DNA of 42,794 nucleotides from Candidatus Nealsonbacteria bacterium (lineage in GTDB: Bacteria; Patescibacteriota; Minisyncoccia; Minisyncoccales; MHMH01). Location of the stretch: the NCBI GenBank assembly GCA_016181985.1, contig JACOYG010000001.1, positions 1 through 42,794 of the forward strand, read 5' to 3'. A program made the translations under genes and the position numbers. Position 1 is the first letter of the stretch. Every line of letters begins with the position of its first letter. The notes below the pieces were generated by a model. It did not search any database and had not been told where the DNA came from. It saw only the letters and a list, made by a program, of their open reading frames with translations. Positions 8,313 through 42,544 of this stretch are shown here, piece after piece.

Positions 8313-8474
8313 ATTTAGTATATTATTAATTTATTATTGTTATTATAGATGTTAATAAATAAATTTTTTATACTTAATTGAATATAAATTTATCCTGTGA
8401 AAATATATTATTTAATTAAATTAATAAACTGTTAATTAAAAATTAAAAATTAAAAATTAAAAATTATCCACAAT
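8313..8474. other. Candidate oriC segment (AT-rich dnaA-dnaN spacer with DnaA box and tandem heptamers)
   Basis: Perfect consensus DnaA box TTATCCACA at 8464-8472, directly preceded by four tandem TTAAAAA heptamers (8436-8463). The whole spacer is almost pure A/T. Confidence 0.6.
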
Positions 8475-9839: not shown

Positions 9840-9952
9840 ATAATTTTATTATCGGATTCATTGTACCACATGTCAAACAAGAACAAAATGAATTTAAAAG
9901 TCGGCTTATTGTTGATAAATTGGGTAAAAACTGTTAACATTTAATTAATTAT

Positions 9953-10087
9953 ATGTCATTCACTTATCAGCCAAAAAAGAAAAAAAGGAAAAGAGTCCAC
10001 GGCTTTATGACCAGACAAAGAACGAAGAATGGCAGAAGGACGATATCCAGGAGTAGAGATAAAAAGAGACGGCGGCTAGCGGTTTAA
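9953..10087 (+). CDS. rpmH: 50S ribosomal protein L34
   Basis: 44 aa ORF found by hand: MSFTYQPKKKKRKRVHGFMTRQRTKNGRRTISRSRDKKRRRLAV. Canonical position upstream of rnpA. Confidence 0.9.
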   Translation: MSFTYQPKKKKRKRVHGFMTRQRTKNGRRTISRSRDKKRRRLAV

Positions 10088-10091
10088 TTTT

Positions 10092-10165
10092 TAGGCGCTA
10101 GGGATTAGGGTTTAGCGTCTAGTGAGTTAAGACTAGACGCTAATTAACTAGACGCTAGACGCTAA
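10092..10165. repeat. TAGCGTCTAG-family repeat block A (rpmH-rnpA spacer)
   Basis: TTAGCGTCTAG (10112-10122) and CTAGACGCTAA (10133-10143) form a perfect 11 bp hairpin. Further CTAGACGCTA copies follow. Same motif set as blocks at 13419, 14618 and 15022. Confidence 0.8.
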
Positions 10166-10171
10166 TATTTT

Positions 10172-10516
10172 ATGCTGTCTAAGGAAAATCGTCTTAAAAA
10201 TACGAAAGAAATAGAATTGGTTTTTAAGAAAGGGAAAGGATTTAAGGCGGGATTTTTATTCCTTAAATTAGTCAGAAACGATTTAAAGACTAGCAGGTTT
10301 GCCTTTGTTGTGAGCAAAAAAGCCGTCCCGAAGGCCACGGATAGGAATAGAATAAAAAGACGGCTGAGGGATATAGTAAGAAGAAACGCGGCCCGCATAA
10401 AGGCGGGATTTGATTTAGTTATAATCGTCCAAAAAGGGATAGAGAGAGTAAAATTTCAGAAAATTAAAGAAGACGCGGAAGAGATTTTTAAGAAAGCCAA
10501 TTTATGGGATTTTTAG
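10172..10516 (+). CDS. rnpA: Ribonuclease P protein component
   Basis: 114 aa basic protein with the RNR motif region KAVPKATDRNRIKRRLRDIV. Conserved rpmH-rnpA-yidC order. Confidence 0.9.
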   Translation: MLSKENRLKNTKEIELVFKKGKGFKAGFLFLKLVRNDLKTSRFAFVVSKKAVPKATDRNRIKRRLRDIVRRNAARIKAGFDLVIIVQKGIERVKFQKIKEDAEEIFKKANLWDF

Positions 10517-11187
10517 GAGATATTTTTAATTTAATATTTTATCAGCCGCTATTAAAAGCGCTGATTCTGATATATAACTACCTCCCCGGCCATGACTTTG
10601 GCATCGCTGTAATTGTTTTGACTCTTTTAATAAAACTCGTTCTTTACCCCTTGGGAGCCAAGGGAATAAAATCTCAAAAAGCTCTTCAGGATCTCCAGCC
10701 AAAAATCAAAGAGCTCCAAGAGAAATTTAAAGACGATAAAAACAGGCAGGCCAAAGAAGTGATGGATCTTTATAGGAGGGAAAAGATAAATCCTTTTTCG
10801 GGATTTTTGCTTTTATTGATACAACTGCCGTTTTTGTTCGCTCTTTTCAAGGTTTTTGGAAATGGAGTTAAAGGAATGAGCGGAATCGATATGACTTTTT
10901 TAGGAACGATAAACCTGGCGCAAGCGTCGGTTGTTTTGGTCATACTCACAGGGCTGGCCCAGTTTTGGCAAGCAAGAATGATGAAACAGCCGCCTTCTTC
11001 AAAGAAGCAATCGGATTTTTCGAACATTATGCAAAAACAAACGATCTACTTTTTTCCTCTTTTTACCGTGTTTATCCTTTGGAAAATGCCTTCCGCTATC
11101 GCTCTTTATTGGCTGACGACAACGCTCTTTACAATTTTTCAGCAATATATTACACTTAGAAAGAATAAAAGCGATGTCGCAAACTAA
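10504..11187 (+). CDS. yidC: YidC/Oxa1-family membrane protein insertase (short form)
   Basis: 227 aa polytopic protein. Contains the KSQKALQDLQPKIKELQEKFKDD amphipathic loop typical of short YidC/SpoIIIJ, with conserved synteny. Confidence 0.85.
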   Translation: MGFLGDIFNLIFYQPLLKALILIYNYLPGHDFGIAVIVLTLLIKLVLYPLGAKGIKSQKALQDLQPKIKELQEKFKDDKNRQAKEVMDLYRREKINPFSGFLLLLIQLPFLFALFKVFGNGVKGMSGIDMTFLGTINLAQASVVLVILTGLAQFWQARMMKQPPSSKKQSDFSNIMQKQTIYFFPLFTVFILWKMPSAIALYWLTTTLFTIFQQYITLRKNKSDVAN

Positions 11188-11644
11188 CACAGAGAAAATT
11201 CAAGACATCATTAAGGAGTTTTTCAGTAAAACCGGAATTGCTCTTGAAGGGATAGAAATAAAAACTCCGCTCGATTCAACTATCCCCATTAATTTAAAAA
11301 TGGAGGAGCCTCAGACTTTAATCGGCGAAGGAGGGCAGACCCTCATGGAAGTGCAGCGTCTCTTGAAGATGGTTTTGCAGAGGAAAATTGCCTCGGACGC
11401 CCATTTTTATATCGACCTGGACATTAACGATTATAAGAAGAAAAAGACCAATTATTTGAAGGAAATGGCCAGATCGACCGCCGACGAGGTGTCTTTGGTT
11501 AAAAAAGAAAAATATCTGCCGGCAATGTCAGCTTACGACAGGAGGGTCGTTCATGTGGAGTTGGCCTCCAGGCAGGATATTGTGACCGAAAGCGTGGGCT
11601 ATGATCCGGAAAGAAAGGTGGTTATCAGGCCGCGGCTTCTTTAG
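11174..11644 (+). CDS. jag: Jag/KhpB-type RNA-binding protein (KH + R3H domains)
   Basis: 156 aa. R3H region LPAMSAYDRRVVHVEL. Follows yidC as in many bacteria. Confidence 0.8.
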   Translation: MSQTNTEKIQDIIKEFFSKTGIALEGIEIKTPLDSTIPINLKMEEPQTLIGEGGQTLMEVQRLLKMVLQRKIASDAHFYIDLDINDYKKKKTNYLKEMARSTADEVSLVKKEKYLPAMSAYDRRVVHVELASRQDIVTESVGYDPERKVVIRPRLL

Positions 11645-13418
11645 CCGCTTTTTTTATTTCTCTTAATTCTTTAACTTCTTCGGGGGCCGTGGTAATGAAT
11701 TTATTCTCGGCATCGGAAGCCACCACTTTTAAGGCGACATGTTTTTGTCCGGCGAAGAAAAGCCCCTCCCCCACCTGCGCGCCGGTGAGTAATTCTTTTT
11801 CCCAATCCGTCAGGTTGAATGTTTTTTGAACAACGCCGGCGGTTGAAGGGCTCTGTTTCATTAAAAATTGCAGAGAAGAGTTTGAAATTATCGGCTGGCC
11901 GTATTCCGATCTCATGAAATCGCTGACGTCCTGGGTGATTGTGGTCACTCCCAGCCAGTATTTTCTGGCCCTTTTGACTAATCCGAAAAGGAAAGACGCT
12001 CCGTCTTCGGAATGCATCAGCCACCAGGCCTCGTCAACCACCATAATCCTCTTTTTCAATTCGGAGCGTATTTTGTTCCAAATATAACGGGTGATGATAT
12101 ACATCGCCATGGGGCGCAACCCCTCTTCCATGTCTCTGATGCCAAAAGCCACGAAAGTATTATCCATTTTAACGGTAGACGGCTTATTAAAGAAATTAGC
12201 GTAAGTTCCTTTGGTGTATTTTCTGACGCGCCTTACCAAAGACTCGGTTCCTTCCATGGTGTTTAATACTGCTTCCATGTCGGACATTAAAGGCGGCTCG
12301 GCTTGAGAGAAATCTGAGGCAGGCGTGATATCTTTAGCCGCGTAAGTTTCGGTAATCGCCCGATCCATAATGGCATCTTCTTCGGGGGTGAGCCCGCCGA
12401 GCATTAAACGCATCAATCCTACCAAGTTGATAATATTTGACCTTAGTATGTCTTCGGGTTTTTCGTCTTCTCGCGGGATGGGCAAATCAAAGGGATTGAT
12501 ATGATGAGGGCTGGCCAGAGACATTTTAAAATAAGAGCCGCCGACCGCGTCTGATAATGATTCGTACTCGTTTTCGGGGTCGACAACAATAACATCCGTG
12601 CCCAGCATTAAAGAACGAAGAATTTCCACTTTAACGAAATAGCTCTTTCCGGAACCGGACTGGGCAAAAATCACCATATTGGCATTGGGCATGGAAAATC
12701 TGTCGAATAAAACCAAAGAGTTGTTGTGTTGGTTTATGCCGTAAAGAATGCCTTCGTTCGAGCTTAAGTCAAAAGAGACAAAAGGAAAAATACTGGATAA
12801 GGGGCCGGTGTTCATCGGCACATTGACGTCTAGCTGGTCCAAACCATAAGGAGAAGTTGAAACAAATCCCTCTTTTTGCTGGTAAAGAGAGGGCTTAATG
12901 TATATTAATTTTGATTCCAACATTGATCTAAGAGTGGTTTCAATGCTGTCCAATTCCTGCTCTTGGTCGGCGTAGACGGTCAAATAGAGCCCCAGCCTAA
13001 ACATTCTCTCTTGGGCAGTTTGAAGGCGGTCTCTTAGCTCTTCAATGTCCCTGTAGGCGGTTTCCAGGGCAGGATCCCTGACCAGGCCCTTGGATTCTCT
13101 TTCCATCAGCTCGGCCTGGATCTCCGTTACTCTTTTTCGCAGTTGTTTTAGAATCAAGCCGGCTTCAATGGGATGGATGAAAAAAGAGATATCCATCGGC
13201 ATATCTAAATTAATAATAGGAGAGAACCAGCCGGCCGTAAGATACCGAGGATAAGAGAAGATAAAATAAGAGCGGGCGAATCTCTCGCTTAATTTCAAGC
13301 TGGACTGATTTACTTCAATCGAAGCGGGCGCCACAATGTCCACCGCTCTGATCGCCTCGGTTTCAAAAATCTCTTCTTCCGGTATTTCTGTTTTTTTCTT
13401 TTTATTGAATAATTTCAT
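11625..13418 (-). CDS. VirB4/TraC/PrgJ-type T4SS ATPase, central + C-terminal (ATPase) part of a split gene
   Basis: 597 aa. Walker A AQSGSGKSY and Walker B RIMVVDEAWWLM. The N-terminal segment (APASIEV..YFIFSYPRYLTAGWF..DISFFIHP) matches the mid-region of Gram-positive VirB4 homologues. Confidence 0.85.
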   Translation of the reverse strand: MKLFNKKKKTEIPEEEIFETEAIRAVDIVAPASIEVNQSSLKLSERFARSYFIFSYPRYLTAGWFSPIINLDMPMDISFFIHPIEAGLILKQLRKRVTEIQAELMERESKGLVRDPALETAYRDIEELRDRLQTAQERMFRLGLYLTVYADQEQELDSIETTLRSMLESKLIYIKPSLYQQKEGFVSTSPYGLDQLDVNVPMNTGPLSSIFPFVSFDLSSNEGILYGINQHNNSLVLFDRFSMPNANMVIFAQSGSGKSYFVKVEILRSLMLGTDVIVVDPENEYESLSDAVGGSYFKMSLASPHHINPFDLPIPREDEKPEDILRSNIINLVGLMRLMLGGLTPEEDAIMDRAITETYAAKDITPASDFSQAEPPLMSDMEAVLNTMEGTESLVRRVRKYTKGTYANFFNKPSTVKMDNTFVAFGIRDMEEGLRPMAMYIITRYIWNKIRSELKKRIMVVDEAWWLMHSEDGASFLFGLVKRARKYWLGVTTITQDVSDFMRSEYGQPIISNSSLQFLMKQSPSTAGVVQKTFNLTDWEKELLTGAQVGEGLFFAGQKHVALKVVASDAENKFITTAPEEVKELREIKKAAKEAAA

Positions 13419-13499
13419 GTTTAGTGCTTAGTGAATTAGCGTCTAGCGTTTAGTGAATTAGCGTTTAATTCTAACTCACTAGACGCTAGACCCTAGCCG
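13419..13499. repeat. TAGCGTCTAG-family repeat block B, exactly filling the gap between the two VirB4 ORFs
   Basis: TTAGTGAATTAGCGT occurs twice in tandem, followed by the inverse unit AACTCACTAGACGCTAGA. TAG/TGA/TAA stops occur in every frame. Confidence 0.8.
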
Positions 13500-14159
13500 C
13501 TACTTTGCCAGTTCCGGAGGAATTTCAGGGTAATAGCCGACTTCGGCTTGCTTCGGGTGGTGCAAGCTCCAAAAAAGCTCAACAATCTCAGGCGTAGTCA
13601 AGGGCATGGCCTGAAGTCCGCATCTTCTTAACCCCAAGGCCACGAATTCCATTCTCTGCCATAATTGCTGTTTGGCCATCTGAAACTTTTCTTCGGTCAA
13701 AATGGGCAGCTGTGGCGTTCTTAAGAGCTTACCAGCATCGGCTCCTTTAGTTTCCAATAAAGTAAAAGGCACCACCACAAAAAAGTTTTTTGACATGATT
13801 TCTCCATATCTCCCGACCGGCGGAGCGCCCGAAACCACATCTTCGATAAATTTTCGGTACGCCGTAGTCTGGATTTTAAGAAGTTCGTTGGTTTGTTTCG
13901 CTTCCAGCGCCTTAATGCCGTCTATATAGCCGGTTATATTAAGCCGGCGCGATTGGATGATAATTTGCAAATCAAAATCCAGAGAATTTAAAAATTCCTG
14001 GAACTGATAAATAATGGAAGATTGCTCTTCGTCCGACTTTAAAGCGAAATTCAAAGAAGAAACCATCATAATGGCTCTCAATGCCTTGTTTTTCAGAATG
14101 GCTACGCCTTCTCTTATCTGTTCTATTTCCAAGAAATCTTGTGTGGATGAAACTTGCAT
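13500..14159 (-). CDS. VirB4 N-terminal domain protein (separate ORF)
   Basis: 219 aa. STQDFLEIEQIREGVAILKN..LNFALKSDEEQSSIIYQFQEFLNSLDFDLQIIIQSRRLNI follows the pattern of the first ~200 aa of Tn916-Orf16/PrgJ/TcpF-type VirB4 proteins. 219 + 597 aa equals a normal full-length VirB4. Confidence 0.65.
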   Translation of the reverse strand: MQVSSTQDFLEIEQIREGVAILKNKALRAIMMVSSLNFALKSDEEQSSIIYQFQEFLNSLDFDLQIIIQSRRLNITGYIDGIKALEAKQTNELLKIQTTAYRKFIEDVVSGAPPVGRYGEIMSKNFFVVVPFTLLETKGADAGKLLRTPQLPILTEEKFQMAKQQLWQRMEFVALGLRRCGLQAMPLTTPEIVELFWSLHHPKQAEVGYYPEIPPELAK

Positions 14160-14209: not shown

Positions 14210-14614
14210 TTAGTGTCCGACCTGGTCGGAAAGGTCTTTTAGCTTGCTCTTCCCCACCGCCGTGGGCACCGGGCTTTCTCTAATTCCCGCAGCTTCCGGT
14301 TTTTTAGCCTGGATTAATTTTAAAGGTGGCCCCACTTTTTTCTTCCAGAGATATATTTTGGGCCGCATGCGGTAAATAAAAATATTTTTAATGACTACGG
14401 GCAGGGGCCTGCCGTTGGATTTTCCAAAAGCCAATATGGCGGCGAAAGAAAAAATGACAAGCGACGCCATGATAAAGAAAAAAAAGTGTATGGTGAAATA
14501 AAGAACAAAGCAAATTGCCCCGGCTGTTCCGACATAAATAAACTGTTGAAAAGTCATGGGGCCTATCACCTTGGCCTTCTCCTCAATAAATTGTGGCACG
14601 GTAAATTGATCCAT
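14210..14614 (-). CDS. PrgI-family / VirB3-like small membrane protein
   Basis: 134 aa. N-terminal VPQFIEEKAKVIGPMTFQQF, then two TM helices, then NGRPLPVVIKNIFIYRMRPKIYLW. This is the layout and motifs of PrgI-like proteins encoded next to VirB4. Confidence 0.65.
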   Translation of the reverse strand: MDQFTVPQFIEEKAKVIGPMTFQQFIYVGTAGAICFVLYFTIHFFFFIMASLVIFSFAAILAFGKSNGRPLPVVIKNIFIYRMRPKIYLWKKKVGPPLKLIQAKKPEAAGIRESPVPTAVGKSKLKDLSDQVGH

Positions 14615-14617
14615 TAT

Positions 14618-14657
14618 TTTAGTGAGTTAGCGTCTAGCGTTTAGTGAGTTAGTGAAC
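14618..14657. repeat. TAGCGTCTAG-family repeat block C (left inverted arm of the four-helix-bundle cassette)
   Basis: TTTAGTGAGTTAGCGTCTAGCGTTTAGTGAGTTAGTGAAC. Its reverse complement resembles block D on the other side of the 14649-15017 gene, and it overlaps that gene's last codons and stop. Confidence 0.8.
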
Positions 14658-15017
14658 GGGCGGTTTATTTTCTAATTTATTAATTAAAACATTCAACATT
14701 TTTTGTATTTCTTCCAACAGCGCGTTAGCGGCTTGGGATTTAATATTCGGATATAATTCTTCGCCGATTATCAATTGCGTTTCCAGTTCGGCAGAAGAAC
14801 CATAGCTGATTCTCAAAAATTGCAAAAATTCTTTCCGATTTTTTCTTAAATAACCTTCGGCAATGTTCGAAGGGATGGATACTGCCGCCCGTCGCATTTG
14901 GTTTGATAGCCCGTAGGTTTCATCCTTAGGAAAGCCGCTCGTTAATTCGTATACTTTCTTAACTAAGCCAATAGATTTTTGCCATACCGTTAAATCCTTG
15001 TAAGATTTTAAATACAT
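14649..15017 (-). CDS. Four-helix-bundle protein (23S rRNA intervening-sequence protein family; Avd-like fold)
   Basis: YKDLTVWQKSIGLVKKVYELTSGFPKDETYGLSNQMRRAAVSIPSNIAEGY...SYGSSAELETQL is the family signature. ATG at 15017 preferred over the GTG at 15026 used by the ORF track. Confidence 0.9.
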   Translation of the reverse strand: MYLKSYKDLTVWQKSIGLVKKVYELTSGFPKDETYGLSNQMRRAAVSIPSNIAEGYLRKNRKEFLQFLRISYGSSAELETQLIIGEELYPNIKSQAANALLEEIQKMLNVLINKLENKPPVH

Positions 15018-15021
15018 AACA

Positions 15022-15085
15022 GTCACTAAACGCTAATTCACTAAACACCGGTTCACTAGACGCTGACTCACTAGACGCTAACTTA
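15022..15085. repeat. TAGCGTCTAG-family repeat block D (right inverted arm of the cassette)
   Basis: GTCACTAAACGCTAATTCACTAAACACCGGTTCACTAGACGCTGACTCACTAGACGCTAAC. Opposite orientation to blocks B and C. Confidence 0.8.
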
Positions 15086-15550
15086 CTACACAATGGGTTC
15101 ATGATAAACGTCTTTGCCCCGCGGCCTTGGCGGCTCCTCCCTTATTGGTTCTTCCTTGGCGGGAAGTGTCGTTGTTTTTTCTATTTCTGTTGGCTTGGCC
15201 TTATCGATTATTTGATTTTTAAGATCGTCCGCCATTTTTTGCGCTTCTTTTTTTGAGATGTTCAAACTTTTCCCTAATAATTCCGGCAAATCTTTAAATG
15301 AAATTTTACCTTCCACGCAATTCATGACTAATCCCGATATTTTAGTCCCGGGCAGATTTTCAAAGATTCTGCTTCTTTCGCTCGGGGCATTAAGACCGGT
15401 TGATTCAATAAATTTTTTAATACCCTCGTCTTGATCTTTTTGTAGTCCATATTCTTCCAGTAATTTGGTGATTATTAAACTGCTTTCTTCCGGAATGTCA
15501 AAATCTCTCGTTTTTTCTAAGATTTCATTATCGCTATTTTTGTTTATCAT
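15086..15550 (-). CDS. Hypothetical soluble acidic protein in the T4SS-like operon
   Basis: 154 aa ORF packed tightly between the VirB6-like gene and repeat block D. No TM segment and no recognisable motif. Confidence 0.55.
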   Translation of the reverse strand: MINKNSDNEILEKTRDFDIPEESSLIITKLLEEYGLQKDQDEGIKKFIESTGLNAPSERSRIFENLPGTKISGLVMNCVEGKISFKDLPELLGKSLNISKKEAQKMADDLKNQIIDKAKPTEIEKTTTLPAKEEPIREEPPRPRGKDVYHEPIV

Positions 15551-15559
15551 AACTTTATA

Positions 15560-17401
15560 TTAAACTTTCCACTTCGGGTTTGTCGACATTTTTTTGATTT
15601 GCTTTCCAAGGCCAATAGGAAGACTCGTGGCGTTGTTTAACGTTTTAAGAATCTCCTTTTTAATCTCGGGTTTTGCGTGCCGTGTTATATCCTCAAATTT
15701 TGCGTCATCTTCCAATATATGGACGACCACTTCGCTGTTTTGATATGCTTCTTTCTGTGTCTTTTCCAAAAGATCCTTAGTGGTCATTTTATCTAACGCC
15801 TCGATAATTGTTTTGCCTATTTTCGGAGCCAGGTCCGGTCTCCTTTCCATAATTTTATCCGGACTGACTCCCTTTCTGACCGCTTCCGCGATAAATTTTT
15901 CTTCATTTGCGCCGATTTTCCCTTCCTTGGTTATAATATCTATAATAGCCGCTATCTTACCGGAGCTGCGAGCTATTTTTTTAGAGTCTTCTTTTAACAA
16001 TTCGGCCTGCAAATAATTTCTTCTATCTTCAGTATCTTTTGGAGCCCTCTTAAGTATTCTTGCTTTATCTTCCGCAAGAGTAGCTTCTTCTATTGATCGG
16101 ATCTTGGCTTGGGCGATTTCGCGTCTCCTGGTCCATGCCCCCAGCTGGGATTGTTCTCTCGGCGTAATGGTGCCGGCTGCTTCCTTCGCCTTTAATGGCG
16201 TAATTATTCTCTCCGCCGCCTTAGCTCTTTCGCCTTCTTGCCATGTCCTACCTCTTAGCGTGGCTTGTTTCGCTTTTCCGGCTAAGTAGCCGGTGCCTCC
16301 AGATATTGCCATGCCCCCTAATTTCCAAAAGTCGTCCATTGCGGCCGGGCTCATTTTTTTAGCGATAGTTAAAGTAAAGACTAAATAAACAATCAAAAAA
16401 ATGAACTTCGAATAATCGGCAGCAAGATTAGTGCCCCTTATATTAAAAGCCGTTGCCGGAGCCACGGCAGCAAAAAATTTTAATCCCAAACCCATTACGA
16501 AAAAAACCACAACTCCCAAAAATGTCCACTGGAATAAGGCTCCGAGCCATTGGCGAAAATATTTTTGGGTTTGAGGCAGTATATAGGCCGCAAAAGCCAA
16601 GGGGGCCGAAACGGCTAATAACCAAATAATGGCTATTCTTAATAAAAACAACAAAGCATAGACCAAGAAAACGAGCCCGCCGACAATACTGAATGCCCCT
16701 AAAATAAATGTTTCGCTGAATGTTCCGAATAGGCCCTCTCCTAAAACTGCTGTGCCAAAAAATATCAAGCGCGCTACGTTGGCGAATGGGATTAAGGCGA
16801 CGATATAGTATGGCGCAAAAAACCAAGCGGCATACTCACCCACGGCTTTTGCTGCGGCTCCGGCCATTTGGCTGGCAATCGGTACCGCCATTCCGGCGGT
16901 TCCAAAAAAAGATTGCTTGAATGCATTTTGGACAACCCACCCCATATCAGCCACCATTTTGACCAAGAGTAAGCTAAAATTAACCAAGAGGGCTATGACG
17001 ATTAATCTGGGCAGGGCTTTTTTCATCCCAACATTTTCAGCTTTGAAGATGTAGGAGATGGCAATAAAAATAAAAATTAAAATAAAAGACATGTTTACCA
17101 GTCCGCTTGTAAAATGCCAACCGGCATTTACCAGGTCATTATTTAACCCTACGGGCAAGGATGACGCCCAATCCAAGAAGGCGGCTGAAAAAGAAATAAA
17201 GAATCCCCCCGCCAAGGCAAACATTAATAGATAAAAAAGCCAGGCTACGATCCGATCCAGAAAGTCTAGAGCGTCTAATTGCATTGAAGCCAGCGACGGG
17301 ATAACGTCAAAAAAAGCGTTGGCTTGCTGTAAACAAAAGAAAAGTCCAAAAAAGATAAGAAAAAAAACCGGAATTTTATTAAATCTAAAGATTTTCCTCA
17401 T
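15560..17401 (-). CDS. Polytopic membrane protein, VirB6/TrbL-like, with long charged C-terminal domain
   Basis: 613 aa. Signal-like N-terminus, about 8 or more hydrophobic helices over the first ~370 aa, then a Lys/Glu-rich soluble tail. The assignment rests on topology and position next to VirB3/VirB4-like genes. Confidence 0.55.
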   Translation of the reverse strand: MRKIFRFNKIPVFFLIFFGLFFCLQQANAFFDVIPSLASMQLDALDFLDRIVAWLFYLLMFALAGGFFISFSAAFLDWASSLPVGLNNDLVNAGWHFTSGLVNMSFILIFIFIAISYIFKAENVGMKKALPRLIVIALLVNFSLLLVKMVADMGWVVQNAFKQSFFGTAGMAVPIASQMAGAAAKAVGEYAAWFFAPYYIVALIPFANVARLIFFGTAVLGEGLFGTFSETFILGAFSIVGGLVFLVYALLFLLRIAIIWLLAVSAPLAFAAYILPQTQKYFRQWLGALFQWTFLGVVVFFVMGLGLKFFAAVAPATAFNIRGTNLAADYSKFIFLIVYLVFTLTIAKKMSPAAMDDFWKLGGMAISGGTGYLAGKAKQATLRGRTWQEGERAKAAERIITPLKAKEAAGTITPREQSQLGAWTRRREIAQAKIRSIEEATLAEDKARILKRAPKDTEDRRNYLQAELLKEDSKKIARSSGKIAAIIDIITKEGKIGANEEKFIAEAVRKGVSPDKIMERRPDLAPKIGKTIIEALDKMTTKDLLEKTQKEAYQNSEVVVHILEDDAKFEDITRHAKPEIKKEILKTLNNATSLPIGLGKQIKKMSTNPKWKV

Positions 17402-18819
17402 TAATATTGAAGATTAATCATTTTAACCGATCTAAAAAATGTTTCTCCGAAAGCTGACATGTCCCTAACCTCTTTAGAAACAACCACGGGCGGGTTGTCG
17501 GAATTCGCTCGGTAATTATCCAAAGAGTATAAAATCAATTGACAACTCCCTTCGGATTGTACCGACTTGACAGTTTCATTCAGGATTGGCACTCCGTTTT
17601 CCGGACCCTTAAGCGTCATAATTGGATTGGTATATTTAATGTCTCTATAAAGAGTCGATTCTTTACAATCGCCGCCTTGCTCTTCCTTCGGAAGGCTAAA
17701 CCCGATTTTCCATTCTTCTTGGTTGCCGGGCAGTTCCGGCATTTTTAATTTAGTTAATTGCGGATTAATAGTGTTGAGAATAAGGACTGAACCCAAAAGT
17801 AAAACCAAGCCCAAACCGGCGGACCTAATTCTGTCCATGGCTTCCTTCATCTTCCCGGCGTTACCGGCCGAAGTAAGATATTGGACTCCGGCTATAACTA
17901 AAGCAATAAAAGCAGCAAATCCGCCCAAAGAAATTCCCCAGTCATATATATATTTAATTAATCCGGGGATGTCGGTTTTTTCATTTAGTTTTGATCTGAG
18001 GGGTGAGTCAGGCCATGCAATTTCTAGCTTTCCGGTAGTTGATCCTGCGCCCGTGCCAGTCCCAGCCCCAGAAGTTCCCGGAGGCGGAGGACCAGCTATT
18101 TCGAAGGAATATGATTTATCACCAAATTTGCCCTTACTGTCTGTCGCCGTTATTGTGACTTGGTAGGTACCACCGAATGCGGGCGCTCCTTCTAATATTC
18201 CCTCGGAATTAAATTTTTCACCGGATTTTCCAAAAGATAGCCCGGGAGGGAGAGTGCCCTGGCCGCCCCACTTATAAGGAGGAGCGCCGTCAGTGGCCTG
18301 AAATTTTATTGTAAGATATTGATTTGCGGTTCCAGTGATGGGAGATGCTGGAGAAATAATATTTGGCGGCTTAGCCGATGCCGTGCCAGGAGCCGGCGCA
18401 GTGGCGGGAGCGATATTAATTGAGAAAGGTATTGTTCCAAAATTTCCTTGCGAATCTTCCAAAAATAACCTGAAAGCAAAACTCCCATCAAGATCGGGCG
18501 TTCCTTCGAGCAAGCCCGACAATTTGTTTACAGATAATCCACGAGGTAATGTTGTTTGATAACCCGATGGAATAGAGCCGGTGGGAGCTTGGACAACCGC
18601 GTTTTTATAAGGCAATAAAACGGAAGGGAAATATTTTTGTAAATTTTCTGAATAAGGGATGAATATTTTACCGTCATGCAGGGCGGTATAGCCAGACACA
18701 GGGCTCACTTGGCTAAAAACATTATTAATGCCGAAAAAAGCCGTGCCGATAATTATAAAAAATAAAATATAAAAAGATTTTTTCATACCCCTGCTTATAT
18801 TATTGCCGCTTCGCGGCAT
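17401..18819 (-). CDS. Secreted Ig-like repeat protein fused to a VirB2/TrbC-like pilin hairpin plus a C-terminal extra domain
   Basis: Start moved to the ATG at 18819 (AGGAG 6 nt upstream; extended -10 TGGTATAAT at 18839-18847; an upstream terminator lies inside the longer ORF). Putative-Ig motifs LPRGLSV..LEGTP and LPPGLSFG..GILEGAP. Pilin-like hairpin ISLGGFAAFIALVIAGVQYLTSAGNAGKMKEAMDRIRSAGLGLVLLLGSVLIL. Confidence 0.7.
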   Translation of the reverse strand: MPRSGNNISRGMKKSFYILFFIIIGTAFFGINNVFSQVSPVSGYTALHDGKIFIPYSENLQKYFPSVLLPYKNAVVQAPTGSIPSGYQTTLPRGLSVNKLSGLLEGTPDLDGSFAFRLFLEDSQGNFGTIPFSINIAPATAPAPGTASAKPPNIISPASPITGTANQYLTIKFQATDGAPPYKWGGQGTLPPGLSFGKSGEKFNSEGILEGAPAFGGTYQVTITATDSKGKFGDKSYSFEIAGPPPPGTSGAGTGTGAGSTTGKLEIAWPDSPLRSKLNEKTDIPGLIKYIYDWGISLGGFAAFIALVIAGVQYLTSAGNAGKMKEAMDRIRSAGLGLVLLLGSVLILNTINPQLTKLKMPELPGNQEEWKIGFSLPKEEQGGDCKESTLYRDIKYTNPIMTLKGPENGVPILNETVKSVQSEGSCQLILYSLDNYRANSDNPPVVVSKEVRDMSAFGETFFRSVKMINLQY

Positions 18820-18873
18820 AATTTTCTCCTTATTTATAATTATACCACTTTTATTGTTGTAAATGAACTGTGG

Positions 18874-18910
18874 AAAACAAAAGAGACCTAATTTAGTTAG
18901 GTCTCTTTTC
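18874..18910 (-). terminator. Rho-independent terminator after the 18919-19545 gene
   Basis: Minus-strand AAGAGACCTA / TAGGTCTCTT 10 bp stem followed by TTTGTTTT. Confidence 0.75.
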
Positions 18911-18918
18911 TTAATCAT

Positions 18919-20152: not shown

Positions 20153-20675
20153 CTATTCTTTAACTGTGACGCTATTTACGATTTTGTCAATATCCCCTGC
20201 CAGTCCTTGCCAGTATTTTTCTGGCGCAAAAAGAGATATTAAATAACCATCCCTACCGTCGAGTAGTATTTTTTCTTTAGAGAGAACAAAAGAACCGGCG
20301 GGATTTTTATATTTTAAATCAAGAATCCCTTCGTTTATTTCGATCTTTGACTCCAAGATCTCTACCGTCCAGCCGTTATTTTTGTTTACCTCCTCCATTT
20401 TTTTTAAAATCTCTACAATGGGAATTTCCAAGGAGTTCTTCCTGGTTTGTGGTCACCCAATCGCCAGGATATTCTATTTGGAATTTTCCATCGGGGCTTA
20501 TAAATTTTTTGGGCTCGCTTGTTTTCATCGTCGGAAATGTTTCTCGGAATTCTTTTGGCAAGACGTCTTGGAGCGACTTGGAAGCGGGTAAATTAGGCGC
20601 TCGCCAAATCGTCACCGCCATCAGCGCTGAAATTAGGAATAAAAAACCAAGGGATATAAGGATTGTTTTTTTCAT
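20153..20675 (-). pseudogene. Frameshifted gene for a membrane-anchored PsbP/DUF1795-like protein
   Basis: Track ORFs 20376-20693 and 20153-20431 overlap in different frames and read as one protein: ...FQIEYPGDWVTTNQEELL | EIPIVEILKKMEEVNKNNGW.... The second ORF only starts at an internal TTG, and the total length of 523 nt is not a multiple of 3. Likely true start is ATG 20675 (MKKTILISLG). Confidence 0.6.
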
Positions 20676-20677
20676 GT

Positions 20678-23122
20678 TTATATCGAGTACCAATTACCGA
20701 AAATTCCAACTTGATAACCGATTAATTTCAGGAATATGTTCACGAGCGTCCAAGCAATGGCAATAATAGCCATGCCAATTCCGGCTGATTTCCAAAGAGA
20801 TATTACTCCGGCCAAGGTGGCCGCCTTTCCTAAAGAAAAATAAAACATAAGGCCGGAGTATATTGTGAGCAACACTAAAATGACTGGCACCATCCTCAGC
20901 AAGAGAAAGTCAAAAATAATTTTAACCATTAAAAATACGTGTTTTACCTGGCAAGGCTCTCTTTCGTTCCAAGGCGTCTTGGGGTTATCCGTGTTTTTCC
21001 CGCAAGGTATCAGCCCCCCTTTGCTGGCCCCCGTCGGTTCGGTCAAATTAAAATTCCAAGAGCCAGACCAATTACTGGCCTCAACGCAGTTTTCGTCTAA
21101 ACAAGAACGCACCTGCCATTGATAATTTCCCAAGCAGTCTAACTTGATAAAAGCCGAATTTGTGTGAATAATTTGTGGCGATACTATTTCCTGCCCCGCC
21201 AATAATTTGCAGGATTCATTTACTTCGTCAGAAGACAGGGTTAGATATCGTATTTTATATTGGTATGTTTTAACTCCGGAGTTTTCGTTCCAAGAAACAT
21301 AATTTTGATCGGTTTGGAGTTGGCCGCCGTTTTCCGGCGATGGATCGGATGGTATGGGCAAGCGGAAGGTTGTAAATGTTTGAGCGGGACCATACTGGCC
21401 GCAGGCCCAGCCATCATGGGCGCAGGTTTTAACTTGCCAGTTATAATCTGCTTCTTGGCGCACATTGTATTCCGGATAAGCAATAGAAAACTCCGGCTTA
21501 TCGACGGTTTTTTCCAAATTCAAACCATCTCCGGAAATTTTTAAAATATATGACTTAGCCCCCGAGACTTCCTGCCATTTAAGATTTATTGGAATGGGAA
21601 CGCTGCTTGATCCCGGTGCGGGATTTTCTAAAATCGGCGGCTGGCCGGTAGTTTTGAAAGACCATTCTTGGCTAAAATTTTCGCATTTTGAGCCCACAAA
21701 ATCAGAGCAAGCCCTTACCTTCCATTTATAAATAGTATTTAATTTAAGAATATCTACGTCTAAAATATCTGATTGCGTCCCCTGGACTATAGTGGGAGCC
21801 CAATTATTTATCTGGTATACGAAAGAATTCATTCCTGGCGGCGAAGACCAACTTAGAGCAAAGGGGAATCCAATCGGGTTTTTTCCTTCCGGGTCATTTT
21901 GCGGAGAAACAAGAGAAATATCTTTGAAACTTTTTTGCTCGCTGGTAAAACTCCAGCGCTGGCTATAATCCTTGCACTCTCCCCCCGAGAGTCCGCCATC
22001 TTCATCGAGACAAATTTTTACTTCCCAGTCGTAGATCGTGTCTTTAGTGAAAAAATTAAGACCACTATCGGTAAAATCGGAATAAAGCAATTTTTCTATC
22101 TGATTGGGATCCCTGCGTTCTTTTCTTATTACCCAAGAATCGCACTGTTCTCCTTGCGATGCGTTGAATAAAACAGGCGAGCAGATTCTTTTTCCCCCTT
22201 CCTCTAAAAATACCCTGAACCGGTAAGATTTAGCTTCCTTAATGTCGCACCAGTCAATTTTTAAAGGTGAGTCGGGAGTTATTACCGCCGCGCCGCCTTT
22301 GGGGCCGGCCCAGTCGGGATCTTCCGGGGAAACGAGTTCCGGCGCCATGCCTGTCTTAAAGCTCCAAGCGCTGGCGGGGCCGCAGTTTTTTCCGTCAACC
22401 GAACAGCAGGCCTGGGCCTGCCAGGAATAATCAGTATTGGATTTTAAAAAACAAGCGCCTTTTTCTTCCCTCAAACCGCTATACTCGGATTTGGTCAGAA
22501 TTTCAGGAACAGCGCCGCCTTCGGTATTAAGCTGAAACAAGTATGACTTTGGACCATCGGGCGCTTTTAGCCAACCGACAACATCATTCCAATCAAACTT
22601 TACCGGCAGGAGGACGCTGGCGCTTCCCATGTCTTTATCTGCTTGGTCGGAATAATCGGGACTGTCGTAATAACGGGGATCTTTCGGCGCCTCCAAGCAT
22701 TGGCCGGCAGAGCACGAGCATGAAGGCAAGGTATCGTTATAATTCTTGGGGCCATAAGCCGATTTTCTGCTGATTCCTCCGGGTCCACAGGCTTGCCATG
22801 GCTGGCAAGACGAGCTTTTACTCCAATCTCCCTCTCGTATATTGTATTTGCAAGAATAAGAAGGACAATCTACTCCCGACGCGGACTCTAAGGTATACCA
22901 TTCAAATACGCGCCTTGTTTTAATATCGGCGCCCGTATCATTTGAGATCCCGCAAATACTAGAGCAAGTATATTCGTCCCAAACATTTGAATCCGGGCAA
23001 GTTGGCGGCGGAGGACAGACAACGCCTCCCCCACCTCCTTCTTCGGCATTGATTTTTCCGGGTAAAATAAAACCGGCTAAGCTTATTAAAAAAAATAACA
23101 AAAGAATATATGGCTTTTTCAT
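20678..23122 (-). CDS. Large secreted Cys-rich repeat protein (five Fn3/Ig-like modules) ending in a VirB2/TrbC-like pilin hairpin
   Basis: 814 aa. Signal peptide and a Cys-rich N-terminal region. Five modules each start l-W-x-v-x-gaKsY and end Y-x-W-x-V-x-x-C...C...W-x-F-x-T. The C-terminus LIPCG...PC-QVKHVFLMV...two TM helices parallels the free pilin at 31253-31681. Confidence 0.75.
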   Translation of the reverse strand: MKKPYILLLFFLISLAGFILPGKINAEEGGGGGVVCPPPPTCPDSNVWDEYTCSSICGISNDTGADIKTRRVFEWYTLESASGVDCPSYSCKYNIREGDWSKSSSCQPWQACGPGGISRKSAYGPKNYNDTLPSCSCSAGQCLEAPKDPRYYDSPDYSDQADKDMGSASVLLPVKFDWNDVVGWLKAPDGPKSYLFQLNTEGGAVPEILTKSEYSGLREEKGACFLKSNTDYSWQAQACCSVDGKNCGPASAWSFKTGMAPELVSPEDPDWAGPKGGAAVITPDSPLKIDWCDIKEAKSYRFRVFLEEGGKRICSPVLFNASQGEQCDSWVIRKERRDPNQIEKLLYSDFTDSGLNFFTKDTIYDWEVKICLDEDGGLSGGECKDYSQRWSFTSEQKSFKDISLVSPQNDPEGKNPIGFPFALSWSSPPGMNSFVYQINNWAPTIVQGTQSDILDVDILKLNTIYKWKVRACSDFVGSKCENFSQEWSFKTTGQPPILENPAPGSSSVPIPINLKWQEVSGAKSYILKISGDGLNLEKTVDKPEFSIAYPEYNVRQEADYNWQVKTCAHDGWACGQYGPAQTFTTFRLPIPSDPSPENGGQLQTDQNYVSWNENSGVKTYQYKIRYLTLSSDEVNESCKLLAGQEIVSPQIIHTNSAFIKLDCLGNYQWQVRSCLDENCVEASNWSGSWNFNLTEPTGASKGGLIPCGKNTDNPKTPWNEREPCQVKHVFLMVKIIFDFLLLRMVPVILVLLTIYSGLMFYFSLGKAATLAGVISLWKSAGIGMAIIAIAWTLVNIFLKLIGYQVGIFGNWYSI

Positions 23123-24084
23123 TATTTTATTCTAAAACTTTTTGTCAGATTGCGCCAATCGTCAATACTTAAAGTTTCGGCTCTTTGAGTCGGCTGGATA
23201 TTATTTTCCATAAGCCACTCCCCTATTTTTTCTTTCCCTGCGTCCAATCCTCGCGATAAATTATTTATTAATTGTTTTCTCGGCTGGGAAAATCCCGCCT
23301 TCACGATTTTAAAAAATTTACGGACGTCGGGCCTCTGTAAGTCTTGTGGTTTTGAGATGATTTTTAAGATGGCTGCATCTACCTCGGGTGACGGCCAGAA
23401 AGAGTTTCTAGAGATATAAGAGATAATTTTCGGCTCCGCATAGAATTGGACGGAAACAGCCAAGAGATTTAAGTCTGGCGGTTTGGCGCAAATTCTTTGC
23501 GCTACTTCTTTTTGCACCACCAGCGTCATATCCGTAGGTTTTGCCTCAACGTTCTCAAGGAGCTGACGAATCAGGTGGGCGGTGAGGTAAAAGGGAAGGT
23601 TGCCGACGACTTTAAAAGCACTAAATTCTAAATTCGAAATTCTAAACAAATCCAAAATCCCAAATTTCAAATCCAAACCACGTTTCGAATTTTGGAAATT
23701 GGAATTTAGATATTGTTTCGGATTTAGTGCTTCGGATTTCGAATTTCCCGGGACTAACTTCAAGATATCTCCGTAGATAATCTCCACATTTTTAAAGTCC
23801 TTCAGAGTTTCTTTCAGGATTTCCACCATATTCCGGTCTTTTTCTACGGCAATGACTTTTTTGGTTCTTTTTGCCAGCTCTTGGGTTAAAACGCCCAGCC
23901 CCGGCCCTATTTCTAGCACTACATCATCCGGCTGGAGGTCAGCTGCTTCAACAATCTTCCGAATAGCTGCCTTATCTGTTAAAAAGTTCTGGCCGAGCCC
24001 TCGCGACGGCTTGGCCTGGCGCGACTCTAACAGATTTTTGATATTTTTTACTGAAGTAAGCTCCATATTAGGATATTGTAGCAC
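23122..24084 (-). CDS. rsmA: 16S rRNA (adenine1518/1519-N6)-dimethyltransferase RsmA/KsgA carrying a ~45 aa insertion
   Basis: SAM motif VLEIGPGLGVLT and VVGNLPFYLT motif. 320 aa is long for the family. The stop overlaps the start of the downstream adhesin-pilin gene (TAATG). Confidence 0.9.
   Translation of the reverse strand: MLQYPNMELTSVKNIKNLLESRQAKPSRGLGQNFLTDKAAIRKIVEAADLQPDDVVLEIGPGLGVLTQELAKRTKKVIAVEKDRNMVEILKETLKDFKNVEIIYGDILKLVPGNSKSEALNPKQYLNSNFQNSKRGLDLKFGILDLFRISNLEFSAFKVVGNLPFYLTAHLIRQLLENVEAKPTDMTLVVQKEVAQRICAKPPDLNLLAVSVQFYAEPKIISYISRNSFWPSPEVDAAILKIISKPQDLQRPDVRKFFKIVKAGFSQPRKQLINNLSRGLDAGKEKIGEWLMENNIQPTQRAETLSIDDWRNLTKSFRIK
23614..23748. repeat. AT-rich palindromic repeat element inserted in frame inside rsmA
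   Basis: Terminal arms AAGCACTAAAT (23616-23626) / ATTTAGTGCTT (23722-23732). The reverse complement begins GAAATCCGAAGCACTAAATCCGAAACAA, matching the elements at 41028 and 42398. Translated as NSKSEALNPKQYLNSNFQNSKRGLDLKFGILDLFRISNLEFSAF. Confidence 0.8.
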
Positions 24085-31252: not shown

Positions 31253-31681
31253 TTACGGAGTTTTGCACTGAATATTATACCATTTCCAGCCATTCCCCAA
31301 TTCAACAACCCCGATTTTATCAAACACGGTGTTAACAATAACCCAAGCGGCAAAAATAATCAAGAGGCCGACAACAGCCGCAGTGATTACCCCCTTAGCT
31401 TTGTTAAAAGCATCGGCTTTTGCTCCGGCAAAAAGCAGCAACACCCCGCCGATTATAAACATCAGAGACGCCACGGTCGGAACCACCCAAGTGAATATCC
31501 ACTCAAGGAGATTGCTACCCATCACAAAAATATCGCAGAACTCGCAAGGCACATAACCTAATGTTGCATCTATGCGGTTAGCCGGTTCAACAATCCCCGG
31601 TCCGCAGGTCACTAAGGCTGCTTGGACTTGGCTAATTCCCAAAAATAAAAACAAAAAAATTACTAAAAATATTTTTTTCAT
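31253..31681 (-). CDS. VirB2/TrbC-like T4SS pilin (free-standing)
   Basis: 142 aa. Signal peptide, LVTCGPG...PCEFCD motif, then two TM helices separated by the basic loop AGAKADAFNKAKG. Same architecture as the C-termini of 20678-23122 and 17401-18819. Confidence 0.75.
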   Translation of the reverse strand: MKKIFLVIFLFLFLGISQVQAALVTCGPGIVEPANRIDATLGYVPCEFCDIFVMGSNLLEWIFTWVVPTVASLMFIIGGVLLLFAGAKADAFNKAKGVITAAVVGLLIIFAAWVIVNTVFDKIGVVELGNGWKWYNIQCKTP

Positions 31682-33390: not shown

Positions 33391-33687
33391 TGGGGAGCCA
33401 AAAAATAAAGTCAGAAGAATCTTGCGGACAACGGGTGTCCGCAGGCGGGTGTCCCTCTGCGAAAATTCGAAAAGGCGGCGGAGCCGCACCTCTGACAACC
33501 TGCCCGCAATGCTACATGCTACGCCAGCCCGCATGACTCGCATCAGCGTGTCTGGCGGGCATAAGCGTTGCAGGCGGGTTTCAAGTTTTTCTATGAGTTA
33601 ATAATAACTCATTTCAGTAAATTTTTCAAGAAAAATGAGCTTGAAAAATTTACTGCTTTGGCGGCAAATTCTTGTTCCTTAGAATTC

Positions 33688-33729
33688 ATAAAAAGAAAAG
33701 CCCGCCAGAGGTCCAAAGGACATGGCGGG
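33688..33729 (-). terminator. Rho-independent terminator of the GC-rich orphan gene
   Basis: Minus strand GCCCGCCA-loop-TGGCGGGC followed by TTTTCTTTTT, 10 nt after the stop. Confidence 0.75.
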
Positions 33730-33738
33730 CAACGTGCG

Positions 33739-34170
33739 TTAAGCAGATGCCGGGCTGTACTGAATCCGGCGTTTGTCTGCTTCGGCCCAAGCAGCAGCGG
33801 CTTCTGCTTCGGGATCATCGCTCATCGTCCAGTCCTCGAAGCGAAAAGCTTGATTGCTTCCTGGACCTGTTCGACCGGCCGAGATGATTCTCAGGCGTTC
33901 GGGGCTCCACTGTTCTCCGGGAATCTGAGCGCGTCCGTCTCCCCGCAGAAGAACCCATGCCTGAATTGATCCGAAGAGTCGCCCCGGTCCCTTCCGGAAG
34001 TGAAGGGTGATGAAGCAGTCTCTCCGGCTGGGAGCGAAGGGGTCTGGCGCGTAAACGTCGACCCTGATCACGGTGAGGTCGGCTGTGTAGTTGAACAGGT
34101 GTTCGAGCGCTCGTTCCGTAGCCGTGATCGCGATCCAGACCGAATTGGTGATAGACATCCTGGTTGCCAT
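33739..34170 (-). CDS. GC-rich orphan hypothetical protein (143 aa)
   Basis: ATG preceded by GAGGAGG. Has its own consensus promoter and terminator. Composition and codon usage are clearly GC-richer than surrounding genes. No family recognised. The overlapping ORF 33815-34198 is judged spurious. Confidence 0.6.
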   Translation of the reverse strand: MATRMSITNSVWIAITATERALEHLFNYTADLTVIRVDVYAPDPFAPSRRDCFITLHFRKGPGRLFGSIQAWVLLRGDGRAQIPGEQWSPERLRIISAGRTGPGSNQAFRFEDWTMSDDPEAEAAAAWAEADKRRIQYSPASA

Positions 34171-34308
34171 TGCTTGCCTCCTCTGTCTTAGAGTGCATCC
34201 AAAGAATTATTCTTGGATGGCCGCTGTCTCAGCAGCACCAAATACTCAAGGGTTATTAAATACTTGGTGCTACTGAGACAAATTTCAAATAGCGATTTTA
34301 CTGTTTGT

Positions 34309-41016: not shown

Positions 41017-41027
41017 GAAAATCCCAA

Positions 41028-41123
41028 GCACGAAATCCTAAATCCGAAACGTATTTTGAATTTTGAAATTTAGAATTTAAATATTATTTCGAATTTCGAT
41101 ATTCGAATTTAGAATTTAATTTT
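41028..41123 (+). repeat. AT-rich palindromic repeat element copy N1 (immediately upstream of the nusA ATG)
   Basis: AAATCCCAAGCACGAAATCCTAAATCCGAAAC...AATTTAAATATTATTTCGAATTTCGATATT. The 30 nt right-hand core is identical to copy N2. Confidence 0.8.
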
Positions 41124-42470: not shown

Positions 42471-42530
42471 AAGATTATAATTTAAATATTATTTCGAATT
42501 TCGATATTAGAATTTCGAATTTTAATTATT
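42398..42530 (+). repeat. AT-rich palindromic repeat element copy N2 (spans the nusA 3' end and downstream spacer)
   Basis: GAAATCCGAAGCACGAAGCACGAAATCCGAAACAAATTCAAATG...AATTTAAATATTATTTCGAATTTCGATATT, followed by ATGTTTTATATC, which echoes the nusA start ATGTTTGATATC after copy N1. Confidence 0.8.
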
Positions 42531-42544
42531 ATGTTTTATATCCC

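Follow-up and report, generated by a model that had tools for sequence, protein, structure and literature searches.

The window analyzed here, a 42,794-nucleotide (nt) stretch of Candidatus Nealsonbacteria DNA (contig JACOYG010000001.1 of assembly GCA_016181985.1, positions 1 to 42,794), contains an open reading frame (ORF) at 20678..23122 on the minus strand that starts with ATG and encodes a protein of 814 aa, in which a first-pass annotation made from the sequence alone had noticed a Cys-rich ectodomain fused to a VirB2-like pilin hairpin. The reading favored here is that this protein is a modular VirB2-like pilin, probably an adhesin, of the monoderm type IV secretion system (T4SS) of the Paceibacteria and Nealsonbacteria type, a statement to which, taken as a whole, a probability of about 0.5 can be given. 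Its parts differ in strength: that the protein is a T4SS-associated surface adhesin with a true pilin-family domain can be held with considerable confidence, and its actual incorporation into a filament is somewhat less likely than not. The T4SS itself and its component families are known; the fusion architecture is real, widespread, and uncharacterized.

The hydropathy profile of the 814-aa protein displays hydrophobic stretches at residues 1-26 and at about 728-803, the latter comprising two helices. The first of these is assigned to a Sec-type signal peptide (23045..23122; MKKPYILLLFFLISLAGFILPGKINA|EE, where the bar marks the putative cleavage site), and is followed by a Cys-rich N-terminal head (residues 27-167, 22622..23044), a stalk of five fibronectin type III (FN3)-like modules (residues 168-697, 21032..22621), a Gly-rich linker with a pre-helix loop defined by invariant alignment columns (residues 698-726, 20945..21031), and the VirB2-like pilin hairpin with its aromatic tail GYQVGIFGNWYSI (residues 801-814; hairpin and tail at 20681..20944), all on the minus strand. 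The signal peptide and the Cys-dense N-terminal region of the first-pass annotation were both recovered, with 11 of the 30 Cys of the protein lying within residues 27-175, all of which fall in the head, and every motif that it quoted is present in the translation (CPPPPTCPD, SCSCSAGQC, DYSWQAQAC..AWSFKT, YDWEVKIC..RWSFTS, YKWKVRAC..EWSFKT, YNWQVKTC..QTFTT, and YQWQVRSC..SWNFNLT). Comparisons within the family were based on an alignment of 19 full-length homologs (E values down to 0), cut at the module boundaries proposed in the first pass.

As judged from family profiles, the C-terminal domain of 117 aa truly belongs to the T4SS_pilin (PF18895) lineage of Patescibacteria, which is itself related to TrbC/VirB2. 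The last 118 residues of the protein align over their full length with a free 142-aa pilin encoded in the same window (31253..31681, minus strand; BLASTP E 3e-11, 25% identity), in agreement with the resemblance noted in the first pass. A hidden Markov model (HMM) of the C-termini of the family finds this free pilin with E 6.5e-16, as the sole other match among all ORFs of the window, and an HMM built from free pilins only finds the target C-terminus with E 2.8e-31; given these two matches, a hairpin devoid of significant similarity to VirB2/TrbC-type pilins, which the first-pass annotation had allowed for, does not describe this protein. Membership is argued through family profiles because the direct Pfam match is insufficient: the full-length protein has no match to PF18895, and the C-terminus alone scores 12.1 bits (E 0.21) against a cut-off of 26.6, so that the single sequence stays below the threshold of the T4SS pilin family model and the link to that family comes from the family profiles. 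Amongst the 19 orthologs, 12 match PF18895 at E<=0.1 (best 1.4e-4). When profile A2, derived from the C-termini of the family, was searched against 5.8 billion proteins, 55 small proteins were retrieved, most of which carry a precomputed PF18895 assignment; dozens of PF18895 proteins were matched at E 1e-13 to 1e-34. Free relatives scanned singly (n=37) matched PF18895 in all cases except one, and 23 of the 37 also matched PF04956 (TrbC/VirB2; best E 4.5e-6). Stand-alone pilins of the "CG..PC..KH" subtype with their own signal peptide also occur (e.g., P0090). By these sequence comparisons, the C-terminal domain has evolved as a module in its own right and has become fused to Ig-like ectodomains.

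Structure prediction with AlphaFold2 (AF2) agrees with hydropathy in giving the C-terminal domain two long hydrophobic helices separated by a short loop, which is the hairpin of the pilin superfamily (residues 727-762 and 767-800 in the full model, or 30-66 and 70-103 in the model of the domain alone; predicted local distance difference test (pLDDT) up to 94). The helices are preceded by a loop of the form GGL(I/V)PCG..NPxTPWNEREPC, in which C707 and C724 are invariant (alignments A1 and A2), and the same CG...PC motif lies directly behind the signal peptide in free pilins. The fusion differs from a small pilin in that the leader does not stand directly ahead of the pilin domain, since about 670 aa of folded ectodomain intervene. 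Mean pairwise identity amongst the 19 homologs is 0.51-0.55 for loop, hairpin, and tail (loop 0.55), 0.40-0.45 for the modules, and 0.30 for the head. Conserved charged residues (K727, H728, K734, D738, and R743) are found outside the hydrophobic core, at the start of helix 1. As no other parts of the protein are better conserved than the Cys loop, the charged beginning of helix 1, and the aromatic tail, the hairpin is presumably more than a passive anchor.

The five modules (M1, residues 168-258; M2, 259-398, with a conserved insertion; M3, 399-492; M4, 493-586; M5, 587-697) are homologous to one another, as the first reading of the sequence had proposed, with all 10 pairwise profile-profile comparisons significant (hhalign probability 96.7-99.5%, E 3e-10 to 1e-22). 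They are predicted to be FN3/Ig-like beta-sandwiches with the characteristics of the FN3 type. The stalk matches Pfam ChitinaseA_N above the cut-off (E 5.5e-6), Ig_Rha78A_N matches 13 of the 19 homologs, and matches to fn3 and Pur_ac_phosph_N are found besides. The module fold prediction suggested in the first pass was carried out, and the full AF2 model (mean pLDDT 78, with modules mostly at 80-95) consists of strings of beta-sandwiches that in Foldseek resemble tandem FN3 proteins (gp130, fibronectin, and GhpA; E about 1e-13). Disulfides are suggested by a Cys pair retained in each module directly behind the YxWxVxxC strand, in invariant columns of the 19-member alignment. Modules at orthologous positions in different homologs share 39-46% identity, compared with 21-30% for modules at different positions; because orthologous modules are thus closer to each other than to modules at other positions, the stalk is best regarded as an old, position-specific unit of five domains rather than a recently expanding repeat. 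The head, to which no family could be assigned (residues 27-167), is modeled with moderate confidence (pLDDT about 60-88) as beta strands forming small beta structures.

The spread of the family was surveyed exhaustively with HMMER, and the C-terminal profile gave 8,966 matches at E<=1e-3 and 160 at E<=1e-30 among 1.84 billion cluster representatives (50% identity clusters). The best 150 matches include 125 proteins of at least 400 aa, in which the domain is always located at the extreme C-terminus, and 102 of these 125 large relatives have exactly five modules. Amongst 110 complete five-module members, the three parts of the protein vary in length to very different degrees: the linker and pilin domain behind M5 have an interquartile range of 118-121 aa (coefficient of variation (CV) 0.25, with three outliers of up to 378 aa), the stalk from M1 to M5 has a median of 554 aa (CV 0.11), and the head ranges from 0 to 996 aa (CV 0.77). 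The head is also the most variable part within the family alignment, with 0-179 aa amongst the 19 homologs. In a few relatives, the ectodomain joined to this pilin module is of the PKD or InlB-B-repeat type. Ectodomain hypervariability, as envisaged in the first pass, therefore applies to the N-terminal head and does not extend to the five-module stalk, which is conserved position by position. The combination of a variable head with a constant stalk and C-terminal module suggests, by analogy, the usual pattern of adhesins and receptor-binding proteins. With 19 full-length homologs and 16 genomic loci, the observation is far beyond chance.

Related loci were sought in species-representative genomes, with the search seeded by 11 closer sequences. 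Of the 16 loci recovered, 14 contain near-full-length orthologs, mostly in metagenome-assembled genomes (MAGs) of Candidatus Nealsonbacteria, Paceibacteria, or Parcubacteria. In the window, the stop codon of rsmA overlaps the ATG of the target gene (TAATG), and the next small gene begins 4 nt past the target stop. The genes that follow, all on the minus strand, are two small conserved genes, two genes for membrane or secreted proteins, a gene for a 505-aa Ig-pilin, and genes for TrbL/VirB6-like, PrgI/VirB3, TrsD-like, and VirB4 proteins. The VirB6/TrbL-like protein (15560-17401) is polytopic and matches Pfam weakly (E 1.1e-3), the PrgI/VirB3-like protein (14210-14614) matches Pfam with E 1.6e-8, the TrsD-like protein of 219 aa (13500-14159) was assigned from NCBIfam and the conserved gene order, and the 597-aa VirB4 ATPase (11625-13418) belongs to the monoderm CD1110 family (NCBIfam, 359 bits against a cut-off of 325). 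VirB4 appears from these assignments to be split, such that the TrsD-like protein represents the N-terminal region of VirB4-family ATPases and is followed by the CD1110 ATPase, and this pair is kept in related loci. The location of the gene within a T4SS-like cluster, inferred in the first pass, is borne out by the VirB6, PrgI/VirB3, TrsD, and VirB4 genes on the same strand; the opinion that the architecture cannot be assigned to a characterized system has to be revised, since the locus is that of a monoderm, MPF_FATA-like Patescibacterial T4SS (PMC10633639, PMC12102498, PMC12857230). The order of the T4SS core genes is conserved in L002-L014, homologs of VirB3, VirB4, and VirB6 are co-encoded with the target in the window and in 12 related loci, and the overall order across loci is free pilin, NYN, PNPase, DksA, LysM/M23, RsmA, target, (small genes), extended pilin, VirB6, PrgI, TrsD, and VirB4. 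The cluster lies at the chromosomal replication origin, since it adjoins a block of jag, yidC, rnpA, dnaA (8475-9839), and dnaN (window positions 7176-13418). Origin-proximal placement has been noted for the T4SS of some Patescibacteria, together with an MPF_FATA-like arrangement (PMC12102498). No relaxase or type IV coupling protein domain was found among the window ORFs scanned with domain libraries. The two small genes immediately downstream of the target (20376-20693 and 20153-20431, both on the minus strand) encode a product of about 99 aa with a signal or transmembrane segment (true ATG near 20673) and a soluble product of 92 aa, respectively; both are kept beside the target ortholog in L001-L003 and L009, have no family assignment, and could specify partners or chaperones of the fusion protein.

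The pilin module of the target is shared with two other proteins of the locus. The free 142-aa pilin passes the PF18895 cut-off on its own (E 5.4e-7) and is a candidate for the major pilin, with a layout of signal peptide, LVTCG...PCEFC, hairpin, and WYNIQC. Free pilins are present in every related locus whose contig extends far enough, and homologs at the same relative position were identified in L001, L002, and L006. Four Cys are conserved in the free pilins of the lineage (alignment A4), in a pattern CG..PCxFC...WYxIxC at the C-terminal end, which suggests from the sequence that a disulfide ties the N- and C-terminal ends together. TrbC/VirB2 pilins are cyclized head to tail, and such an end-to-end disulfide could represent a non-covalent-cyclization analog of this arrangement. 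In the fusion family, K-H replaces the F-C of the free pilins, and the terminal Cys is absent. The second extended pilin-domain protein, of 505 aa (17401..18918, minus strand; identified with Pfam and the NCBIfam Mbov_0395 pilin-like family), comprises a signal or transmembrane segment, two He_PIG Ig domains, a Gly-rich linker, a T4SS_pilin hairpin at residues 317-386, and a Cys-containing C-terminal domain of about 120 aa; according to NCBIfam, its hairpin is related to the Mbov_0395 pilin-like protein of a Mycoplasma integrative and conjugative element (ICE). The first-pass annotation had spoken of three pilin-like C-termini, and this description suits the 814-aa protein and the free pilin but not the 505-aa protein, whose PF18895 hairpin is internal, at residues 317-381 in the Pfam match, with about 120 more residues behind it. 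Counterparts of the 505-aa protein are encoded between the target ortholog and VirB6 in 13 of 14 loci (L001-L011, L013, and L014; e.g., L002 12836-14575), and in most related loci these counterparts have the hairpin close to the N-terminus, with a domain of about 160 aa behind it.

A mechanism consistent with these data would begin with Sec-dependent export of the 814-aa protein by means of its N-terminal signal peptide. The ectodomain would fold extracellularly, with five predicted FN3 modules, each probably braced by a disulfide between its conserved Cys, forming a fixed stalk for the variable Cys-rich head, and the C-terminal domain would enter the cytoplasmic membrane as a helical hairpin with both ends outside (N-out/C-out), in the manner of VirB2 propilins. 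Because the domain is the same module as that of the co-encoded free pilins, it is probably recognized by the VirB3/VirB4/VirB6 machinery, and in canonical systems VirB3 and VirB6 recruit VirB2, which this machinery also extracts (PMC12624023). Small numbers of the fusion protein would be taken up by this machinery, most plausibly first, and early uptake would bring them to the distal end of the polymer or channel formed by the pilins, from where the head would be presented about 20-25 nm outward (an estimate from five FN3 domains of about 4 nm) to contact a host cell. The putative role would be that filled by VirB5 or PrgB-type adhesins in other T4SSs. To our knowledge, VirB5 is absent in monoderms. 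A PrgB-like adhesin was not found in Patescibacterial T4SS loci in a survey of 3,035 genomes (PMC12102498). A pilin array and T4SS are essential for the epibiotic growth of Ca. Southlakia epibionticum, the only representative of these ultra-small bacteria that is genetically tractable (PMC10633639), and T4SS_pilin-domain genes are amongst the most highly expressed genes of unknown function in Paceibacteria-methanogen cultures (PMC10936435). As a more tentative extension, the T4SS pilus of Paceibacteria may be a heteropolymer in which a small major VirB2-like pilin is combined with modular VirB2-like minor pilins, the target being the tip subunit whose head would select the host. The host of Nealsonbacteria-like lineages is possibly a methanogenic archaeon.

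Several observations weigh against this interpretation. We know of no T4SS pilus ever observed in Patescibacteria, so that the term "pilin" is itself taken over from homology, and of no precedent for an N-terminal domain of 700 aa on a VirB2-type subunit, an arrangement that would be hard to accommodate sterically in a helical pilus with five starts. The direct match of the target C-terminus to PF18895 is below the cut-off, as described above, and the C-terminal profile matched no pilin when compared by sequence with PDB chains. The top PDB match of the C-terminal model in Foldseek is the VirB2 of the Agrobacterium T-pilus (8fai_A), with 67 of 68 residues aligned at 24% identity and a target-length normalized TM-score (TMt) of 0.52, but this match is non-significant (E 4.2, probability 0.21). 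The syntenic block also includes unrelated housekeeping genes (PNPase, DksA, and RsmA), and for this reason adjacency alone is weak evidence of functional coupling and may reflect shared ancestry. Additionally, the fixed number and identity of the five modules are no less compatible with a strut of fixed length across the envelope than with a tip adhesin, and a binding function of the head is not demonstrable from sequence, making the host-contact role putative.

Amongst the alternatives, it is possible, if unlikely, that the protein is a static surface adhesin that spans the envelope and never enters a filament, the pilin-derived hairpin serving as a sortase-independent membrane anchor and the FN3 stalk as a strut through the wall and S-layer. 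The constancy of the stalk fits this explanation well (exactly five position-specific modules in most of the large relatives and a CV of 0.11), as does the presence of neither LPxTG nor another known C-terminal sorting signal, which leaves a need for some anchor; the unprecedented N-terminal load would cease to be a difficulty, the synteny could be simply inherited, and the data are about equally compatible with a pure membrane-anchor role and with that of a fibre tip or minor pilin. However, the hairpin region is the best conserved part of the protein, and its conservation takes in the Cys loop outside the membrane, the charged residues with which helix 1 begins, and the aromatic tail, which is atypical for a passive anchor; its domain is common to the co-encoded free pilins and to the second extended pilin of the loci (13 of 14), and the gene is tightly packed with its neighbors and opens a series of T4SS genes on one strand. 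It is improbable that the protein is not an adhesin but belongs to the framework of the envelope conduit, as a stalk or sheath docked to the T4SS by its pilin-like domain and supporting the channel through the wall. Monoderm T4SSs, which have no outer-membrane core complex, need wall-spanning parts (PMC12857230), and both the conserved place near VirB6, VirB3, and VirB4 and the strong conservation of the stalk would be expected of one, but the great variability of the head (0-996 aa) and the exchange of ectodomains in relatives point to outward-facing, diversifying recognition.

Even less credit can be given to a giant propilin, in which the ectodomain would be cut off at the Gly-rich linker before GLVPCG to yield a small pilin and a shed soluble protein. 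The mature N-terminus of free pilins starts exactly at (G)LVPCG, and in the fusion the same motif is preceded by the flexible, low-confidence Gly-rich linker; against such processing, a signal-peptidase-like h-region or AxA site ahead of the motif is present in 0 of 19 homologs, the related loci have no protease gene in common, and a conserved, folded, disulfide-rich ectodomain of 670 aa does not resemble a leader. Finally, an assembly chimera, which the first-pass annotation had named as a way in which it might be wrong, or a mis-called ORF is refuted by the occurrence of the architecture in at least 14 independent MAG loci and more than 100 protein clusters from several sources, with an alignment that is colinear over all junctions.

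The fusion family provides a concrete candidate for the missing adhesin of the Patescibacterial T4SS, as it is widespread, encoded with the T4SS, and joins a variable, host-facing head to the pilin module of the system itself. It offers a testable candidate for the coupling of host recognition to an essential T4SS in epibionts. If the modular pilin reading is true, VirB2-class pilins would for the first time include modular members, which would functionally stand in for VirB5 or PrgB in the T4SS of a monoderm, and the principle of the modular pilin would extend from type IV pili to VirB2-type pilins.

Other features of the window were recorded in the course of the analysis. Between PrgI and VirB6, a gene for a 23S-rRNA-IVP/bAvd-like four-helix bundle and a gene for a 154-aa protein (14649-15026 and 15086-15550, both on the minus strand) have counterparts in 0 of 14 related loci. 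A diversity-generating retroelement (DGR) acting on the head of the 814-aa protein was considered in view of the bAvd-like gene in the cluster, and was rejected, given that the window contains no template/variable repeat pair and no reverse transcriptase and that the bAvd-like gene is missing from related loci. The bAvd-like and 154-aa genes are bracketed by copies of a repeat (TTAGTGAGTTAGCGTCTAGCG...; 10097-10166, 13406-13502, 14607-14652, and 15071-15101), which also forms inverted arms of 68 nt, 85% complementary, around the rnpA-yidC-jag-VirB4 block and could be a small mobile or recombinogenic repeat family. The rsmA gene (23122-24084, rRNA dimethylase) contains an in-frame, low-complexity insertion at 23615-23751 whose DNA resembles the AT-rich repeats flanking nusA (41019-41122 and 42398-42537; matches of 62-67 nt with 65-87% identity), as if an intergenic repeat element had been inserted without disrupting the coding sequence. 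Between a Fic gene and tRNA-Arg (33568-34200), ORFs overlap on both strands, including one of 143 aa that is rich in Ala and Arg (33739-34170); this ORF, the one scanned from the stretch, has no Pfam match, and the stretch has no Rfam match.

Compared with the VirB2-like pilins described for Patescibacterial T4SSs (PMC10633639, PMC12102498, PMC12857230), the target has a homologous hairpin with the same preceding CG..PC loop, and its locus is alike in containing VirB3/PrgI, VirB4, VirB6, and TrsD near dnaA along with several divergent pilin-domain genes. However, the pilins described there are small, of about 130-200 aa, and their hairpin follows immediately upon the signal peptide, whereas in the target the folded ectodomain of about 670 aa lies between the two. 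No description of the fusion family was found in the literature searched, including these three papers, and multi-domain PF18895 proteins are visible in annotation tables. Canonical VirB2/TrbC/TraA pilins (PF04956; e.g., the T-pilus 8fai and the F-pilus) share with the target the helical hairpin, and for them membrane insertion before assembly and recruitment by VirB3/VirB6 and VirB4 are described (PMC12624023), steps to which the route suggested for the target is likened; the target differs from them in its monoderm host, which is without outer-membrane complex or VirB5, and in its huge N-terminal extension, and it has no direct significant sequence or fold match to the solved canonical pilins.

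In terms of function, the same role in target-cell contact from within a T4SS operon is proposed for the target as for VirB5, the tip protein of diderms, and for PrgB and the thioester-domain adhesins of Gram-positive conjugation (PMC12624023, PMC8092201). VirB5 is an all-helical pentamer and PrgB-type adhesins are anchored to the cell wall by LPxTG, and neither is related in sequence to the target, which ends in a pilin domain; searches of the 814-aa protein with Pfam and NCBIfam gave no match to VirB5/TraC or PrgB-type families, and neither an LPxTG-like motif nor a match to the NCBIfam sorting-domain models was found in it. Tandem FN3/Ig stalk adhesins (e.g., fibronectin-like strings, the GhpA grappling hook, and MSCRAMM-type proteins) likewise project a terminal binding domain on a string of beta-sandwiches, the fold similarity being that detected with Foldseek, but they differ from the target in the type of anchor, and each of the target modules has a conserved intradomain Cys pair. 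The modular type IV pilins PilB and PilC of S. sanguinis (PMC8179133, PMC9934059) share the design principle, in which a polymerization module is joined to an adhesive or functional module in a minor subunit of a monoderm filament. They belong to an unrelated filament superfamily with a class III signal peptide, an N-terminal alpha1 helix, and a C-terminal extra module, whereas the target has a Sec type I-like signal peptide, an N-terminal extra module, and a VirB2-type hairpin, and the class III pilin motif G-F/M-T/S-L-x-E was looked for in the 814-aa protein and not found. Despite these differences in ancestry and topology, the putative T4SS adhesin comes closest in concept to the S. sanguinis modular type IV pilin (PMC8179133).

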